Shown one piece after another: positions 194 through 48,796 of a stretch of 64,000 bases of DNA. The notes beneath the pieces were generated by a model. That model was not told the origin of the DNA. It was given only the letters and a program-made list of their open reading frames with translations, and did not search any database. Each line of letters opens with the position of its first letter. The first letter of the stretch is position 1. This stretch comes from an uncultured Gemmatimonadaceae bacterium (GTDB lineage Bacteria; Gemmatimonadota; Gemmatimonadetes; Gemmatimonadales; Gemmatimonadaceae), in contig CAVUDW010000002.1 of NCBI GenBank assembly GCA_963740355.1, positions 1,984,001 through 2,048,000 of the forward strand, given 5' to 3'. Both the position numbers and the translations under genes were made by a program.

Positions 194-416
194 GTTCAGC
201 ATCGCAACTGCAATGGGGGGGAGGCCACGGAGCTCACGGAGTGCGTCGAGAGCCACCAGCGGTGCTGCGCCACCATCGAAACTTCTTGAGAACTGCAGTT
301 CCAAAAATTACCAATCGTTCGCGAAGCACCGAAGGTTGCCACTGGAGCACTCCGTGAGCTCCGTGGCCTCCCCCCCGTTTGCAGTTAAGCAGAGCCCGCA
401 AAAAGGGAAAGCTCGC
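194..416. repeat. Family A inverted-repeat doublet (REPIN/MITE-like element)
   Basis: GGGGGGGAGGCCACGGAGCTCACGGAGTGC at 215-244 and its exact reverse complement at 347-376; spacer and flanks homologous to 5859-6310. Confidence 0.92.
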
Positions 417-5858: not shown

Positions 5859-6310
5859 GTTCAGCATCGCTAACCGCAATGAGGGGGAGGCCACGGAGCT
5901 CACGGAGTGCGTCGAGGGCCACCGATCGTGATCCGCCACCCTAGTAAAAAGCAAATGAGGGGGAGGCCACGGAGCTCACGGAGTGCGTCGAGGGCCACCG
6001 ATCGTGATCCGCCACCCTAGTAAACAGCAAATGGGGGGGAGGCCACGGAGCTCACGGAGTGCTTCGAGGGCCACCTGAGGTGCTACGCCACCATCGCATT
6101 GCTTGAGAACTGCTGAACCCAAATCACCATTCGTTCGCGAAGCGCCGAGGGTTGCAAATGGAGCACTCCGTGAGCTCCGTGGCCTCCCCCCCAATTGCAG
6201 TTGAAGAAGGAAGCGAAACACCGCCGGTTGCCATTGGAGCACTCCGTGAGCTCCGTGGCCTCCCCTCCATTGCAGTTCAGGAAGGCCCGCGAAAAGCGAC
6301 CGCTCGCTAA
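5859..6310. repeat. Expanded family A element: 3 direct copies (76-bp period) plus 2 inverted copies (76-bp period)
   Basis: Direct units start at 5878, 5954 and 6030; inverted GGAGCACTCCGTGAGCTCCGTGGCCTCCCC at 6160 and 6236. Confidence 0.93.
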
Positions 6311-6342
6311 AGGCGCCCTCAGTCAGCTCCGTCGTGGCGAAA

Positions 6343-10294: not shown

Positions 10295-10717
10295 GCAACT
10301 GCCTTGACGCAAAACAGAAGACTGCGATGGGGCAACAGCCGCAGCACTGGACCGCGGCAAAACAGCAACTGCTCATCGCAGAGGTGCAGGGGCGCAGAGA
10401 ACTGCAACGGCAACTGCACGGGCAACTGCCTTTAACGCAGAACGGATGAACTGCGATACTGCGACAGCCGCAGAACTGAACAGCCGCGGAACGGCAACAG
10501 CAACGGCAACAGCTTTGGTAGAGGGCCTTGGAATCGGGAGGACGGTGGGCGAGTTGTTAACAAACTGACTCTAATTATCGTCCTCCGGAAACCTTCACCT
10601 CGCGGACGCAGTTCTGCGGCTGTTCAGTTCTGCGGCTGTTGCAGTATCGCTGTTTCGCGGTTCTGCGTTAAGGCTGTTGCCTTTGCTGTTGTTGTTGCTG
10701 CTGTTGTTGATGTTGCC
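10295..10717. repeat. Family C repeat cluster with a long inverted doublet
   Basis: About 73-bp arms at ~10423-10495 and ~10608-10680 (TTAACGCAGAA..GCGATACTGC..CAGCCGCAGAACTGAACAGCCGC and its reverse complement); degenerate extra copy at ~10295-10360; GCAACN hexamer tails. Confidence 0.88.
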
Positions 10718-11332: not shown

Positions 11333-11503
11333 ACTGCAAATCGCGGAGGCGCAGGGGCGCAGAGAACAGCAACGGCTAATGGCAACTGCGAAAGGCAACT
11401 GCGAACGGCATTAACGCAGAAAAGAAAGCAGCGATACTGCAACGGCCGCGGAACTGCACAGCCGCAGAACTGCAAAGCCGCAAAGCCGCAAAGCAGCAAC
11501 GGC
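11333..11503 (+). repeat. Family C repeat, + orientation
   Basis: CGCGGAGGCGCAGGGGCGCAGAGAAC..TTAACGCAGAA..GCGATACTGCAACGGCCGCGGAACTGCACAGCCGCAGAACTGC. Confidence 0.87.
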
Positions 11504-11560: not shown

Positions 11561-11614
11561 GCTGTTCCCCGCGGCTCCGCGTCCCCCGCGGCTCCGCGTG
11601 AGTTTGTGTGGACC
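11561..11614 (-). repeat. Family B repeat, single copy, - orientation
   Basis: GCTGTTCCCCGCGGCTCCGCGTCCCCCGCGGCTCCGCGTGAG followed by GTGTGGACC; reverse complement of the 42273-42530 unit core. Confidence 0.92.
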
Positions 11615-16469: not shown

Positions 16470-16577
16470 GGTCCACACTCTGCACGCGCGTGCCGCGCCG
16501 GCGGTCCCTACTCTGAACGCGCGTACCGCGCCGGCGGTCCCTACTCTGAACGCGCGTGCCGCGCCGGCGGTCCACAC
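16470..16577 (+). repeat. 33-bp tandem repeat, 3 copies plus a partial copy
   Basis: GGTCC(A/C)(C/T)ACTCTG(C/A)ACGCGCGT(G/A)CCGCGCCGGC at 16470, 16503 and 16536; GGTCCACAC at 16569. Confidence 0.9.
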
Positions 16578-16586
16578 TGCAAAACT

Positions 16587-16778
16587 CGCGGAGCCGCGGG
16601 GGACGCGGAGCCGCGGGGGAAAAGCGGGGAAAGGCGGGGAAAGGCGGGGAGAAGCGGGGTAAAGGCGGGGAAAGCTGGGGAAGGGCGATCGTACCCTCGC
16701 CAAGCGCCGTTCCCTCAATGCCTTTGCAGTTCCCCGCGGCTCCGCGTCCCCCTCGGCTCCGCGTGAGGTCGTGTGGAC
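16587..16778. repeat. Family B inverted doublet with an internal ~10-bp G-rich tandem
   Basis: + core at 16587-16620, (AAGGCGGGGA)-like units at ~16620-16682, - core at 16725-16767 followed by GTGTGGAC. Confidence 0.9.
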
Positions 16779-20038: not shown

Positions 20039-21205
20039 ATGATGCCGTCCGATGTGATATTCCCGCTCACCGAAGAGCAGCGCGAGATCAAGCGCACCGT
20101 GCGCGAGTTTGCCGCGGCCGAGGTGACACCGTTCACCGCGCAGTGGGACCGCGACAGCTATTTCGAACCAACGTTGGTGAAGAAGCTCGGTGATCTCGGC
20201 CTGCTCGGCATGCTGATCCCGGAGCAATACGACGGGCTCGGGCTCGACGCGCAGACGTACCTCATCGCGCTGGAAGAGATGTCGACACACGATGCATCGG
20301 TTGGCGTGATGATGAGTGTGCACAACTCGCTGCCCACGCAGATGATCCTCAACTACGGCACCGAGGAACAGAAGCAGCGCTGGTTGCCGCCGATGGCACG
20401 TGGCGAGATCCTCGGAGCCTTTGCGCTGTCGGAGCCCGAAGCCGGCAGCGATGCCAGCTCATTGCGCGCGCAGGCTGTGCGCGATGGTGACGACTGGATC
20501 ATCAACGGCACCAAGTCGTGGGTCACGCATGGCTCGTATGCTGGCGCGATTCTCGTCATGGCGCGCACCGATACCCCGGAGGCGCGGCGCGGCAGCAAGG
20601 GCATCTCGACCTTCATCATCACCCCCGACCTGCCTGGCTTCAGCGTCGGCAAGAAGGAAGACAAGCTTGGCATGCGCGCCAGTCCGACGGTGATGCTCAG
20701 CTTCGACGACATGCGGGTGCCGGCCGACCGGATGCTCGGCGCAGAGGGGATGGGATTCATCTACGCCATGCAGTCGCTCGATCACGGCCGACTCGGCATT
20801 GCGGCGCAGGCACTCGGCATCGCCAGCGCGGCAGCGGAAGCGGCACGTGTGTATGCGGCCGAGCGCAAGCAGTTCGGGCAGCCGATCAAGGATTTCCAGG
20901 CTGTGCAGTTCAAGCTCGCCGACATGGCCAGCCGCATCACCTCGGCGCGGGCACTGTTGTACGCCACGGCGAAGGCCAAGGATGCGGGCGAGTCCATCAC
21001 GCAGTTCGGCGCGATGTGCAAGCTTCTCGCGAGCGAGACCGCGATGTGGACCACCACCAATGCCGTGCAGATCTTCGGCGGCTATGGCTACGTGACCGAG
21101 TATCCGGTGGAGCGCCTGATGCGCGACGCCAAGGTCACGGAGATCTACGAAGGCACCTCTGAAGTCCAGCGCATCGTGATCGCGCGCGAGCTGTATCCCC
21201 GGTAA
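20039..21205 (+). CDS. Acyl-CoA dehydrogenase
   Basis: FALSEPEAGSD, QIFGGYGY and IYEGTSE motifs. Confidence 0.94.
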   Translation: MMPSDVIFPLTEEQREIKRTVREFAAAEVTPFTAQWDRDSYFEPTLVKKLGDLGLLGMLIPEQYDGLGLDAQTYLIALEEMSTHDASVGVMMSVHNSLPTQMILNYGTEEQKQRWLPPMARGEILGAFALSEPEAGSDASSLRAQAVRDGDDWIINGTKSWVTHGSYAGAILVMARTDTPEARRGSKGISTFIITPDLPGFSVGKKEDKLGMRASPTVMLSFDDMRVPADRMLGAEGMGFIYAMQSLDHGRLGIAAQALGIASAAAEAARVYAAERKQFGQPIKDFQAVQFKLADMASRITSARALLYATAKAKDAGESITQFGAMCKLLASETAMWTTTNAVQIFGGYGYVTEYPVERLMRDAKVTEIYEGTSEVQRIVIARELYPR

Positions 21206-31533: not shown

Positions 31534-31607
<74 letters not shown>

Positions 31608-32346: not shown

Positions 32347-32420
32347 GGCAGGGTAGCTCAGCTGGTTAGAGCACGGCACTCATAATGCCGGGGTCGCGGG
32401 TTCGAGTCCCGCCCCTGCTA
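32347..32420 (+). tRNA. tRNA with CAT anticodon, most likely elongator tRNA-Met; CCA not encoded
   Basis: GGCAGGGTAGCTCAGCTGGTTAGAGCACGGCACTCATAATGCCG..GGTTCGAGTCC; cloverleaf; CACTCATAATG arm as in elongator Met. Confidence 0.92.
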
Positions 32421-41890: not shown

Positions 41891-42229
41891 TCAGCCTGGG
41901 GCAGGCTCGATACCGAGTGATACGATGTCACCGTCAGCGTTGGTGGTCCAGCGCCCCCCCGCGCTGTCGGCCACGCCGCGCGCTTTCCATCCTCCGGGCA
42001 CGGGCACTGGTAGCGCTAGGAGCGCGCCCTCCGGTGAGGTGAGGAGGGCGAACTCCAGCGTTCCGCGCCCCACTACGACCACGCGACAGCGCCAGCCGCC
42101 GTTCCAGTTCCGATGGAAATCGAATTCCATGTCCACCGCACCGAGCCGCTCCTCGAACGCCAGCCGAATGAGCCTGCGCGCCTCTGGCGTCAGCCCACTC
42201 ATTTCCGTCACCTCGGCGAACTCGCTCAT
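41891..42229 (-). CDS. Hypothetical protein
   Basis: ORF with AGGA RBS and protein-like composition; no recognised motif. Confidence 0.55.
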   Translation of the reverse strand: MSEFAEVTEMSGLTPEARRLIRLAFEERLGAVDMEFDFHRNWNGGWRCRVVVVGRGTLEFALLTSPEGALLALPVPVPGGWKARGVADSAGGRWTTNADGDIVSLGIEPAPG

Positions 42230-42272
42230 TCCTGAAGCTCGCGCGCTCACGTGCGCCTGGTAAGTCGGCCTT

Positions 42273-42530
42273 GGACGCCTTTGGCGGCATTGGTCCACAC
42301 TCCCTCACGCGGAGGCGCGGGGGACGCGGAGCCGCGGGGAACAGCAGGGGGCTGAGGATGGGACGCCTGTGGCGGCGATGGTCCACACTTCCTCACGCGG
42401 AGCCGCGGGGGACGCGGAGCCGCGGGGAACAGCAGAGGGGTTCAGGCTTGGACGCCTTTGGCGGCATTGGTCCACACTCCCTCACGCGGAGGCGCGGGGG
42501 ACGCGGAGCCGCGGGGAACAGCAGAGGGGT
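42273..42530 (+). repeat. Family B tandem array, 3 units of 88-89 bp
   Basis: Units begin GGACGCCT at 42273, 42361 and 42450; each contains GGTCCACAC and CTCACGCGGAG(G/C)CGCGGGGGACGCGGAGCCGCGGGGAACAGCAG. Confidence 0.95.
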
Positions 42531-42650
42531 TGGGGTGATCGTGGAAGTCCGAATGACGGCTGTGTGACGCCGCATGCGACCATTCAATCGCAGGCAGCAA
42601 CGAAAGTCGGAAGCGACGAAGACTTGCGCATTCCACCGACCCCTCCTCAA

Positions 42651-42691
42651 GCAGTTCCCCGCGGCTCCGCGTCCCCCGCGGCTCCGCGTGA
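42651..42691 (-). repeat. Family B inverted copy closing the array
   Basis: GCAGTTCCCCGCGGCTCCGCGTCCCCCGCGGCTCCGCGTGA. Confidence 0.93.
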
Positions 42692-42769
42692 TCAGAAACT
42701 GGGTCTATCGCCGGCGTAGCCGTCCGATTCCACGATTCCCCAAGTCACCTTTTTCAAATGCGAGGAAGA

Positions 42770-43192
42770 ATGAGTCGCGAGCCTGATGAAATCACTGCGA
42801 TCATCATCGAAGAGGCGATCGAGCTGCATCGCCGACTTGGCCCGGGTTTGATGGAGTCGGTCTACGAGGCAGTACTGGCTAAAATGCTGCGCAAGCGGGG
42901 ACTGGAGGTGGTCCGACAGGCGCTGGTCCGGATCGAGATCGATGGCGAGATCTTCGACGAAGGTTTCCGTGCGGATCTGATCGTCGTCGATTGTGTGATC
43001 GTGGAACTCAAGTCGATCGAGCGGTTGCTCGCAGATCACAAGAAGCAGCTGCTGACGTACTTGCGGCTGGCGCACATGCCGGTCGGCCTGCTGCTCAATT
43101 TTGGCGCGCCCACAATGAAGGCCGGTTTGCGGAGGGTGGTGAACAACTACCAGCCGTCGGCCGACAGCCGACTTCGTGTGAATCAAGGCTAG
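42770..43192 (+). CDS. GxxExxY protein (PD-(D/E)XK nuclease superfamily)
   Basis: LGPGLMESVY, RADL..VELK, QLLTY and GLLLNF motifs; 140 aa; GAGGA RBS. Confidence 0.93.
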   Translation: MSREPDEITAIIIEEAIELHRRLGPGLMESVYEAVLAKMLRKRGLEVVRQALVRIEIDGEIFDEGFRADLIVVDCVIVELKSIERLLADHKKQLLTYLRLAHMPVGLLLNFGAPTMKAGLRRVVNNYQPSADSRLRVNQG

Positions 43193-43234
43193 GACGGCGT
43201 GCCTAGGTAACCGTCGCGTGATAGCTTTTCGCAC

Positions 43235-44251
43235 ATGCCGACTCTACTGCTGACCGACAAGGACGTGGCCGAGCTGTTGCCGATGCGGGAGTGCATCGAG
43301 GTGATGGCGGGGGCGCTGCGACGGGTGACGGAGGGGGAGGCGGTGTTGCCGCTGCGGACCGTGCTGCGCCTGGCGGGGACCACGAATGCGTTTGCATCGA
43401 TGCCTGCGATCGTTGGCAGCGGGACCGACGCATCGATCGGGGCGAAGGTCATCACCGTGTTCCCCGGGAATGACGCCACGCCATACGATTCGCACATCGG
43501 CGTCGTGTTGCTGTTCGACGCGCAGTTCGGAACGCTGCTCGCGATTGCAGACGCGTCGAGCATCACCGCCATTCGCACATCGGCAGTGTCCGGCCTTGCC
43601 ACACGCCACCTCGCGCGCGAGGACGCCAGCACCCTGGCCATACTCGGCGCCGGCGTGCTCGCGTTGCCGCACATAGAAGCCGTGTGTGCCGTCCGCCCAA
43701 TCCAGACGATCCGGATCTGGAGCCGATCGGGTGGTGGGGCGGGGAGTCGTGCTTCCGTGCTGGCCGAGCGAGTGCGGGACGCCTTCGAGAGTGACGTGGT
43801 CGTGTCGACGAGTGTGGAAGATGCCGTGCGTGACGCCCATGTCGTCTGCACCATCACCTCCTCGCGCGCACCCGTGCTGGAAGGGCGCTGGCTGTTGCCG
43901 GGAACGCATGTCAATGCCGTGGGTGCGTCGATGAAGGATGCGCGTGAACTCGATACGCAGGCCATTCAGATGTCGCGACTCTTCGCCGATCGGCGTGAAT
44001 CGGTGCTCAATGAGTCTGGCGACTTTCTCATTCCACAGAGTGAAGGCGCCATCAGCGCAGATCACCTGCTGGGAGAGCTTGGAGAACTCGTCACGGGTCG
44101 GCTCGCCGGGCGCACATCGGCCGATCAGGTCACGGTTTTCAAGTCGCTCGGGCTGGCGGTCGAAGACGTTGCGGCGTTGCGGCACATCCATGCCGCCGCC
44201 ATTGCGACGGGCCGCGGCACCATGATCGACCTCGGTGGACATCGCCATTGA
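43235..44251 (+). CDS. Ornithine cyclodeaminase/mu-crystallin family protein
   Basis: ITAIRTSAVS, ILGAG and FKSLGLAVED motifs. Confidence 0.9.
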   Translation: MPTLLLTDKDVAELLPMRECIEVMAGALRRVTEGEAVLPLRTVLRLAGTTNAFASMPAIVGSGTDASIGAKVITVFPGNDATPYDSHIGVVLLFDAQFGTLLAIADASSITAIRTSAVSGLATRHLAREDASTLAILGAGVLALPHIEAVCAVRPIQTIRIWSRSGGGAGSRASVLAERVRDAFESDVVVSTSVEDAVRDAHVVCTITSSRAPVLEGRWLLPGTHVNAVGASMKDARELDTQAIQMSRLFADRRESVLNESGDFLIPQSEGAISADHLLGELGELVTGRLAGRTSADQVTVFKSLGLAVEDVAALRHIHAAAIATGRGTMIDLGGHRH

Positions 44252-47555: not shown

Positions 47556-48796
47556 AGCGATGGATTCTGTGGACGCTTGGCGTGCTCATCCTGGTTCCGA
47601 CGCTGGTGTTCACCTTCTTTGCGCTGCTGTATCGCACAAAGGCCGAGCGCGAGGATCCAGCGAAAGTCCGTCAGGAGATCGCATCGTTGACGAAGGTGCG
47701 CGACTCGCTTCGCATCCTCGTGAATGACGCCGCATCGACCAGTGACCTGCTGGACAAGCAGCCGCCAGGCGACATCGTGATCGGGCTGCCGACGCCCTTC
47801 GTCGATGCGGTGGTGCGCAGCGTGGTGCTGGGCTGGTTCCACGACGTGGACCTGCACCTGCCGCCGATGAAGGTGCACAAGATGGGGGAGGTGAAGGCGA
47901 AACTCGGCCTCTTTGGACGGCGCACCGTCGGTGCCTACTCGATCGACGTCACACTGCTGGACGTCCATGGCCGACTGCAGCCTGGCTTGCCGGAGCTGTC
48001 ATTCGGTGGTGACGTGATCAAGATCGGCATTCCGGTACGAGTGGCGGGCGGCACCGGTATCGCGCGTATTACGGCCGACTGGCAGTCGAAGGGTTTCGCA
48101 GGCCCAGTGTGCGGCAACATGAGCACCACAGGGGATGTGACCGGTCAGGTGCGCGCACGCACTTACACTGCCTCGGGCCGGCTGGTGCTGAGTGCAGAAG
48201 AGGGAACCGTGCTGGTGGACCCGTCCTTTCCGGACCTCGCGATCCGGTTATTCGTCGACCCCTCTGCGGGATCGGTGTCGGCACTCGACTCGCTGCTCGC
48301 CACCCGTGGTGGACTGTGCGGCTATGCGATCGAGAAGTCGCGTGCCAGCGAGCGGATTCAGGAGCTGGTCGGACGGGGCTTCAAGGTGAAGATCCCACAG
48401 CGATTCTTCCGTGCGATTCACCTGCCGGTGGCGGTGGAGACCTCCGTGCCGGTGCAGGATCGCGAGGTGGGGCTCGAGGTCCGACCGAGTGGACTCGCGG
48501 TGACGCCGTCGACGGTATGGATTGCGGCGAATGTGTCGACGACGGCTGCGGCGAAGCCGGTCGCGCCTGCGGCGAAGGTACCCGAGGTCAGTCGCACCAG
48601 GGAACCGGCAACAGCCAGCGACTCCGTTCGGAAGCCAGTTCGCAAGCCGGTTCGCAAACCGGCTCGTAGTTCGACGCGTGATTCGACACGCGACACTTCG
48701 CGCGCAAAGGTGAAGCGCGATTCGACACGCGACACGTCGCGCACAAAAGTGGCCCGCGATTCGACACGCGATACTTCGCGTGCAAAGGTGCCGTGA
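47552..48796 (+). CDS. Hypothetical membrane-anchored protein with repetitive C-terminal tail
   Basis: N-terminal TM and coiled coil; GTGA overlap; VRKP x3 and RDSTRDTSR x3. Confidence 0.7.
   Translation: MKRWILWTLGVLILVPTLVFTFFALLYRTKAEREDPAKVRQEIASLTKVRDSLRILVNDAASTSDLLDKQPPGDIVIGLPTPFVDAVVRSVVLGWFHDVDLHLPPMKVHKMGEVKAKLGLFGRRTVGAYSIDVTLLDVHGRLQPGLPELSFGGDVIKIGIPVRVAGGTGIARITADWQSKGFAGPVCGNMSTTGDVTGQVRARTYTASGRLVLSAEEGTVLVDPSFPDLAIRLFVDPSAGSVSALDSLLATRGGLCGYAIEKSRASERIQELVGRGFKVKIPQRFFRAIHLPVAVETSVPVQDREVGLEVRPSGLAVTPSTVWIAANVSTTAAAKPVAPAAKVPEVSRTREPATASDSVRKPVRKPVRKPARSSTRDSTRDTSRAKVKRDSTRDTSRTKVARDSTRDTSRAKVP
48677..48790 (+). repeat. Intragenic 39-bp tandem repeat x3
   Basis: GATTCGACACGCGA at 48680, 48719 and 48758. 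Confidence 0.85.

Follow-up and report, generated by a model that had tools for sequence, protein, structure and literature searches.

Several bacterial systems combine a small gene with inverted repeats. In REPIN/RAYT systems, a single-copy, mostly vertically inherited gene for a REP-associated tyrosine transposase (RAYT) is flanked by inverted hairpin repeats, the repetitive extragenic palindromes (REPs), which are also dispersed without the gene in tens to hundreds of copies. The 23S rRNA intervening sequences of Coxiella and Leptospira carry an open reading frame (ORF) for an S23p, or four-helix-bundle, protein. Miniature inverted-repeat transposable elements (MITEs) of the Correia/NEMIS kind are short, dispersed, non-coding and intergenic, with terminal inverted repeats and a gene-bearing relative that has the same ends. 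Here we compare with these systems a locus in a 64,000-nt stretch of DNA from an uncultured Gemmatimonadaceae bacterium (the window; positions 1,984,001 to 2,048,000 of contig CAVUDW010000002.1), in which a tandem repeat array and an inverted core precede a gene for a GxxExxY protein, a putative PD-(D/E)XK nuclease. We know of no function assigned to the GxxExxY (PDDEXK_3) family, which is very widespread. We find that GxxExxY genes are coupled, physically and evolutionarily, to hairpin repeats that are also dispersed without the gene. The system is REPIN/RAYT-like in its logic and resembles ORF-bearing rRNA intervening sequences in its architecture, and it lacks defining features of REPIN/RAYT systems and of MITEs; unlike rRNA intervening sequences, the loci examined are intergenic.

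The original prediction for this locus, made from the window alone, described three tandem units of 88-89 bp and an inverted core, followed about 80 bp downstream by a GxxExxY gene with intact-looking motifs, and proposed that gene and repeats form a REP/RAYT-like pair. The layout was confirmed, with the gene 66-80 nt downstream. The features of the locus are as follows, F1 being the name we use for this repeat family.

42270..42531, plus strand: F1 left arm in three tandem 89-bp copies (Tandem Repeats Finder; the arm recurs at 49 multi-hit loci genome-wide). Each copy reads, in order, small outer palindrome GACGCCTTTGGCGGC, then GGTCCACACTCCCTC, the 2 x 17-nt core and AACAGCAG; the core is ACGCGGAG(G/C)CGCGGGGG-ACGCGGAGCCGCGGGG.

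42532..42650, plus strand: F1 hairpin loop of 119 nt, without an ORF (read from the sequence).

42651..42691, minus strand: F1 right arm, GCAGTT-CCCCGCGGCTCCGCGT-C-CCCCGCGGCTCCGCGT-GA (comparison with other F1 loci).

42758..43192, plus strand: GxxExxY gene (TIGR04256 / PF13366, PD-(D/E)XK; profile scores and conserved columns).

43160..43176, plus strand: possible relic of the gene's own downstream arm, in its last codons (..SRLRVNQ), with CTTCGTGTGAAT set against the relatives' arm end CTCCGCGTGAAC.

Tandem Repeats Finder reported a period of 89, 3.0 copies and 90% matches without indels at 42270-42531. Each 89-bp unit holds one 2 x 17-nt core (42307-42339, 42395-42427 and 42484-42516), and the inverted core lies at 42657-42689. 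The 16-mer ACGCGGAGCCGCGGGG, searched with up to two mismatches, gave 16 matches in the window where 0.39 were expected, a number that 0/100 shuffles reached. These include the three remote sites at which the core had been predicted to recur (11567-11599 on the minus strand, 16586-16618 on the plus strand and 16732-16764 on the minus strand), as well as two two-mismatch matches outside repeats (25620 and 30623). When 42447-42705 was folded as single-stranded DNA, the innermost left arm paired with the right arm at -92.7 kcal/mol (z = -10.7; 0/200 shuffles as good). Because the array and the inverted core match the genome-wide F1 layout and their arms pair, we read them as one complete gene-less F1 hairpin, whose right arm is without the outer GAGGGAGTGTGGACC module present in most other F1 right arms. 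Contigs from four sequencing runs contained no joints across the element. We are confident that 42270-42691 is one gene-less copy from a hairpin family that, as a general matter, accompanies GxxExxY genes. The array is therefore part of a complete hairpin adjoining the gene and not, as first proposed, the gene's own flank. The suggestion that it yields a guide RNA also fell away, as the 89-bp units simply repeat one whole arm in tandem (90% identity) and lack the unique spacers of a CRISPR-like array.

The ORF at 42758-43192 scored 129.4 bits with TIGR04256 (cut-off 35; model positions 2-116 of 116) and 128.8 bits with PF13366 (cut-off 22; model positions 2-117 of 117). Its first ATG (42758) is altered in the contig of a related organism, making the ATG at 42770 (140 aa) the likelier start, and the gene therefore begins 66-78 nt past the right-arm end at 42691. 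In an alignment of 38 sequences, the columns of G26, E29, Y32, D69 and K81 of the window protein are invariant and that of E79 is at least 90% conserved; D69/E79/K81 (RADL..VELK) and Q93/Y97 all fall at invariant or at least 90%-conserved columns, and the predicted catalytic motif D69...E79-x-K81 appears intact. An AlphaFold2 model of the protein (mean predicted local distance difference test score, pLDDT, 93.8) has a minimal PD-(D/E)XK fold with an alpha-beta core. A search of the PDB by sequence with the window protein gave no match, and Foldseek against the PDB returned generic PD-(D/E)XK folds only, the nearest of which, weakly, were Cas4 SSO0001 and archaeal Hjc Holliday-junction resolvases (E of at least 1e-3). 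The order of hairpin, gene and OCD is kept in contigs of the related organism at ~90-93% identity, and among the differences listed between the two ORFs, 17/18 fall at codon position 3. Judged from the sequences, this bias and the conserved catalytic residues point to a function of some kind.

GxxExxY genes were found inside hairpins in many bacteria. A profile search of the genome under study (G000, 5.45 Mb; related genomes are labelled G007-G019 and so on, and individual GxxExxY loci carry L-numbers) found only two such genes. The second, gene #2 (G000:C2:2081100-2081493), sits in the loop of a hairpin of another family, F2, whose arm is AACTGCAATGGGGGGGAGGCCACGGAGCTCACGGAGTGC. For each locus, 350 nt upstream were aligned to the reverse complement of 350 nt downstream, and loci with a score of at least 16 were counted as bracketed. 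Among the relatives, 46/63 scorable GxxExxY loci were bracketed (median score 22.5); the 63 loci come from 26/41 related genomes, that is 25 relatives and G000, and include both G000 loci and five partial genes. One further GxxExxY locus had too little flank and was left out of the scoring. In other phyla 70/79 loci were bracketed. By comparison, only 3/799 sampled ORFs of G000 reached the threshold, as did 40/4393 crude ORFs of the same genome, among them gene #2, both RAYT genes of G000 and spurious ORFs that fall within repeats. The cross-phylum loci, 80 in all, were the best matches found with a 10-sequence alignment from the subfamily of the window protein, a choice of query that biases this sample to that subfamily; they belong to Verrucomicrobiota, Planctomycetota, Chloroflexota, Sphingomonadales, Thermodesulfobacteriota, Myxococcota, Acidobacteriota, Cyanobacteriota, Bacteroidota and others.

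The bracketing arms have a common plan. Upstream they read (GT)TCAC-GCGGAG-[N-CGCGGAG]n, in units of ~8 nt, with the reverse complement downstream; variants of the unit include CGCGAAG, CGCAAAG, CGCAGAG, CACAGAG, CGCCAAG and CGCAACG. A median of 21 nt separates the end of the upstream arm from the matched coding start; on the other side, the downstream arm begins at the coding tail or within it. In 33/70 bracketed cross-phylum loci, the downstream arm (...CTCCGCGTGAAC) encodes a tail homologous to the SRLRVNQ tail of the window protein. This tail is the only trace of a bracket of the window gene's own and, although alone not above chance, is suggestive of one at the level of sequence; a possible upstream arm relic at 42726-42739 was not above chance. 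At the window locus, the gene is the neighbour of the hairpin and not its cargo. The same layout, a gene-less hairpin followed by a GxxExxY gene, was seen in another genome (L029). We also noted, on one contig of G012, a pair of bracketed GxxExxY genes that are identical, inverted relative to each other and separated by 7 kb (L019 and L036; G012:C309:13578-13925 on the minus strand and 20828-21175 on the plus strand); the pair may have arisen by recent duplication or may belong to an inverted-repeat structure.

A literature search found no paper that describes GxxExxY genes nested in hairpins. In a paper that contains the term, "GxxExxY" is a domain label only, and a table in PMC3424549 gives the function of PDDEXK_3/PF13366 as "Unknown".

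Arms differ widely between loci and match within a locus, and all units of both arms change together. The arm pair of a locus beat all 60 random partners drawn from other loci in 89/115 loci, and was beaten by at most three of the 60 in 106/115. When arm-unit labels of 85 classifiable loci were placed on a FastTree tree of 139 proteins, they required 32 changes compared with 55.3 +/- 1.8 (minimum 47) in 500 shuffles, with the reservation that kinship inflates these co-variation counts. Within cross-phylum clades one arm unit is shared; one CGCGGAG clade, for instance, joins Verrucomicrobiota, Planctomycetota, Acidobacteriota, Thermodesulfobacteriota and Gemmatimonadota. Such a spread over phyla is an argument for joint travel or co-evolution of gene and arms. 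The window protein is placed in a large clade (support 98) dominated by CGCGGAG-type arms, the type to which F1 belongs.

The same repeats are abundant in G000 without a gene. The F1 core gave 199 matches in 68 clusters (80 perfect, 50 with one mismatch and 69 with two), and 49/68 clusters are multi-hit, mostly in the layout '++ ... --' with inverted arms 100-350 nt apart. From the core, the F1 arm runs outward through GGTCCACAC(T/G)(C/T)CCTC to a variable small palindrome. The F2 core gave 114 matches in 43 clusters, 33 of them multi-hit, and nearly all are gene-less '+ ... -' pairs. Arm identity within G000 was 0.76 for F2, 0.58 for F1 and 0.47 for a third family, F3, values that fit decay of an orphan family; with three families and cores of our own choosing, this is only a hint. 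Apart from the locus described above, the window holds the following members of the three families.

11567..11599, minus strand: solo F1 right-arm core (core search, Tandem Repeats Finder).

16586..16764, no strand assigned: complete gene-less F1 hairpin, ++ ... -- (core search, Tandem Repeats Finder).

5878..6332, no strand assigned: gene-less F2 hairpin, +++ --, with 76-nt arm units and core CACGGAGCTCACGGAG (Tandem Repeats Finder, F2 core search).

226..365, no strand assigned: gene-less F2 hairpin, + - (F2 core search; G000:C2:1984226-1984365).

10464..10645, no strand assigned: gene-less F3 hairpin, unit CAGCCGCAGAAC, 16-17-nt period (Tandem Repeats Finder, F3 search).

11436-11499: further F3 arm (Tandem Repeats Finder, F3 search).

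Other repeats and genes were seen alongside these. A 33-nt x 3.3 array (GGTCCACACTCTGAACGCGCGTGCCGCGCCGGC, 16470-16578) abuts the left arm of the F1 hairpin at 16586-16764, and a G-rich repeat with a 10-nt unit (GGGGAAAAGC x 6.6) takes up the loop of that hairpin; the two lie within 16470-16687. At 48626-48790 there is a 12-nt x 3.4 array together with a 39-nt x 2.9 tandem array (GCGCGATTCGACACGCGACACTTCGCGCGCAAAGGTGAA). Two tRNA genes (31534-31607 and 32347-32420) were the only Rfam matches in the window. A 135-aa ORF without a Pfam or NCBIfam match (41891-42298, minus strand) lies between a reductive-dehalogenase (RDH)-like gene and the F1 hairpin at 42270-42691. Its first codons overlap the first array unit. 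The contig of the related organism conserves this ORF, G007 lacks it in the corresponding interval, and G011 and G017 have another ORF there. Elsewhere in G000, two identical ORFs (MTYLGIDVSKAHLDVAV...; G000:C3:1319546-1320673 and G000:C3:685423-686697), which we take from their sequence to be IS110-like transposases, lie inside nested F3/CGCAGAG-type hairpins; this suggests that such hairpins are insertion targets for an IS110-like element.

Cores were then counted in 20 genomes of the genus, on both strands and with at most one mismatch. F2 gave 103 matches in G000, 75 in G017, 68 in G011 and 40 in G009, with at most five in each of the other 16 genomes; F1 gave 130 in G000, 19 in G011 and 12 in G007, with at most three elsewhere; and F3 (CACAGCCGCAGAAC) gave 98, 84, 68, 56 (G000), 49, 28 and 25, followed by counts of at most seven. 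Each family has expanded in certain species. Intact F2-bracketed genes were found in exactly G000, G011 and G017 at one orthologous site, and therefore represent one ancestral event and not three. F3-bracketed GxxExxY genes were seen only in G014, G016 and G013 (L014 and L048 among them), so the F3 copies of G000 are orphans.

Comparison of orthologous sites between species revealed both filled and empty alleles, with insertion borders placed only approximately at every locus. The element carrying gene #2 is present in G000, G011 and G017; at this site G012, G019 and G009 are empty and hold 157-268 nt in place of ~1135 nt. For the window's F2 array (5878-6332), G011 and G017 likewise have the site filled, and it is empty in G012, G019 and G009. 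At the window's GxxExxY locus, relatives are too diverged for such a comparison (69-77% amino-acid identity in OCD), and their neighbourhoods differ. A third site, G000:C3:955.7k, is empty in G012 and G019, with abutting alignments, and is occupied in three genomes by hairpins of three families, each with a GxxExxY bracket to match in its own genome: F2 in G000, the L039 type in G017 (36 nt identical) and the L018 type in G009 (21 nt identical). This could reflect either repeated independent insertion at one spot or in-place overwriting by each genome's own family. Under either reading, a trans-acting, genome-specific process shapes the gene-less copies. Of the checks put forward with the original prediction, co-variation of repeat variants with nuclease phylogeny came out in its favour.

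How far, then, does the system resemble those already described? As in REPIN/RAYT systems, inverted hairpin repeats flank a gene and are dispersed without it, and the families differ between related species. RAYT proteins, however, are HUH tyrosine transposases, whereas GxxExxY proteins are ~130-aa PD-(D/E)XK hydrolases, and in place of the one short palindrome of a REP, the GxxExxY arms consist of 25-75 nt of iterated 8-nt units. The window gene does not encode a Y1 HUH transposase (PF01797), and the two PF01797 genes of G000 are located elsewhere. An inverted, dispersed repeat on both sides was found for gene #2, with its F2 arms, and not for the window gene. The predicted coupling of gene and repeats was seen for gene #2, in relatives and in other phyla, and did not extend to the window gene itself, for which no bracket of its own was detected. 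Each of the two Y1_Tnp (RAYT-like) genes of G000 (G000:C2:1530268-1530978 and G000:C3:374466-375140) has inverted arrays of its own REP on either side, as in a classic REPtron. These REPs, GATCAAGGGGTCAGAGATCTTGATC and CCGGTGACAGTGCACTCATT, are both dispersed elsewhere in G000 as well, and are unrelated to F1, F2 and F3.

With 23S rRNA intervening sequences the system shares a small ORF in the loop of a long inverted-repeat stem and the existence of gene-less versions. It differs in that the loci examined are intergenic, between protein genes, and that the cargo is a nuclease; no four-helix-bundle genes (TIGR02436) were found in G000. Like MITEs, the elements have inverted ends, intergenic dispersal and one gene-bearing relative with the same ends. 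Unlike MITEs, they have no target-site duplication above control and no transposase, and whole arms are duplicated in tandem. Homing endonuclease genes also place a small nuclease ORF in a dispensable element with filled and empty orthologous alleles, with copying by repair proposed here too. The GxxExxY system departs from them in its many gene-less copies at non-allelic sites and the lack of an intron or intein context, and cleavage by its nuclease is putative.

We infer from these data that the nuclease binds or cuts the arms and thereby spreads or maintains the gene-less copies. That it acts on the repeats at all we regard as a serious possibility, somewhat short of probable. In the proposed scheme, the nuclease would recognise its cognate arms, either by their iterated units or as an extruded hairpin, and would nick or cut there. 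Repair by recombination with other copies would then copy, duplicate and homogenise the hairpins, a process that would be conversion-like and not cut-and-paste. Break-induced recombinational copying fits better than cut-and-paste because the units change in concert, arms are duplicated in tandem, target duplications are lacking and repeat families match the genes. Flanking direct repeats at 25 F2 loci were no longer than those in shuffled pairings (24% versus 28% reach 9 nt), and no transposase link to the F1, F2 or F3 repeats was found in G000. An apparent 8-nt target-site duplication at G000:C3:968k was set aside as within chance. A broader form of the proposal is that GxxExxY proteins are dedicated enzymes of a large and overlooked class of bacterial 8-nt-iteron hairpins, each clade reading its own unit, cutting the extruded hairpin and, throughout the genome, spreading and homogenising gene-less copies by recombinational repair. 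We offer it tentatively and would sooner expect parts of it to fail than the whole to hold.

Several points weigh against an active role of the nuclease. PD-(D/E)XK enzymes hydrolyse DNA and cannot transpose it alone. The window gene lies outside the F1 hairpin, which is on one side only, and its own inverted-arm bracket score of 10 is at the level of chance. The original prediction had named abundant repeats in genomes lacking the gene as a result that would count against it, and such cases were found in part: F3 has its 56 matches in G000 without a cognate gene and reaches high counts in G010, G015 and G008 as well, in none of which an F3-bracketed gene was detected, and no cognate gene was found for the 40 F2 matches of G009. 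Because the genomes of one genus are kin, these co-occurrence counts are not independent, and since an abundant family offers more sites for a gene, the causal direction could run either way. At G000:C3:955.7k, the families matched in G017 and G009 are each one of 3-4 gene-bracketing families, out of an unknown total of families. Finally, orthologous gene-less hairpins are kept between G011 and G017 at ~75% identity with differing arm number, so that many copies must be old and static.

Some of these points would be expected if the genes were passive cargo. In that case host replication or recombination, or some other enzyme, would make the hairpins, and selfish or defence GxxExxY ORFs would lodge in the loops as in a safe harbour and travel with the arms. 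The orphan F3 family of G000 and the two identical IS110-like transposase ORFs inside F3/CGCAGAG hairpins agree with this, as do the lack of target-site duplications and the finding that most gene-bearing copies are syntenic and old. However, passive carriage leaves unexplained why arm type follows protein clade across phyla, why all units in both arms change jointly, and why hairpins at a shared site have the core of each genome's own GxxExxY bracket. The codon-position-3 bias and the conserved catalytic residues also speak for a function, though any function would do. We consider passive carriage unlikely, while giving it real weight.

An explanation at the level of RNA deserves less weight, and we view it as improbable. 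The arms would be transcribed with the ORF, as in an rRNA intervening sequence, and RNase III would cut the stem, insulating or regulating the nuclease mRNA, with the gene-less hairpins acting as RNA stabilisers or terminators. The position of the arms, close before the coding start and at or inside the tail, suits this idea, and arms so close to the coding ends leave little room for a promoter inside them. F1 and F2 hairpins are also rarer in divergent gaps (9/68 versus 413/1479 background gaps, with crude ORF calls). In architecture the elements are the same as 23S rRNA intervening sequences that carry an ORF (PMC4990558, where the Coxiella intervening sequence is termed a selfish element). 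Against an RNA-level cassette, mismatches between arms showed no sense-strand G.U bias (108 G.T versus 129 A.C of 499 in 115 loci; p = 0.19). The Rfam scan found no family at the locus, and a promoter and terminator consensus scan of 42200-43300 found nothing, T-run terminators included, although such a scan is of little value for the host phylum. Moreover, RNA pairing alone explains neither the likeness of units within an arm nor the tandem duplication of whole arms.

Lastly, that the F1 hairpin and the GxxExxY gene of the window are unrelated neighbours in a permissive intergenic region seems quite improbable: the gene is indeed not enclosed by the hairpin, G000 has many hairpins from several families, and the interval between the RDH-like gene and OCD is variable (~70 nt separate the two genes in G007, and another ORF stands there in G011 and G017), but both GxxExxY genes of G000 touch such hairpins, F1 arms are of the CGCGGAG/CGCGGGG type, which is typical of the clade of the window protein, L029 repeats the layout, and that layout is kept in the related organism.

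Returning to the proposal that the nuclease acts on its repeats, G000 is a good test bed, as its two nuclease genes belong to different clades and are matched by two families that are large and fairly uniform, alongside one orphan family that is more degenerate. The match between arm unit and protein clade would make DNA recognition by a ~130-aa nuclease directly testable, and specificity would be readable from the co-variation of arm and protein. If GxxExxY proteins do partner with hairpin repeats, the family gains a function. The proposal, if true, would also explain how the hairpin repeats that abound between genes in many phyla arose and why they are uniform. It would mean that more than ten phyla have a way of spreading repeats that depends on neither an HUH enzyme nor a transposase and is akin in design to rRNA intervening sequences, and with it a second, mechanistically different counterpart to REPIN/RAYT systems.

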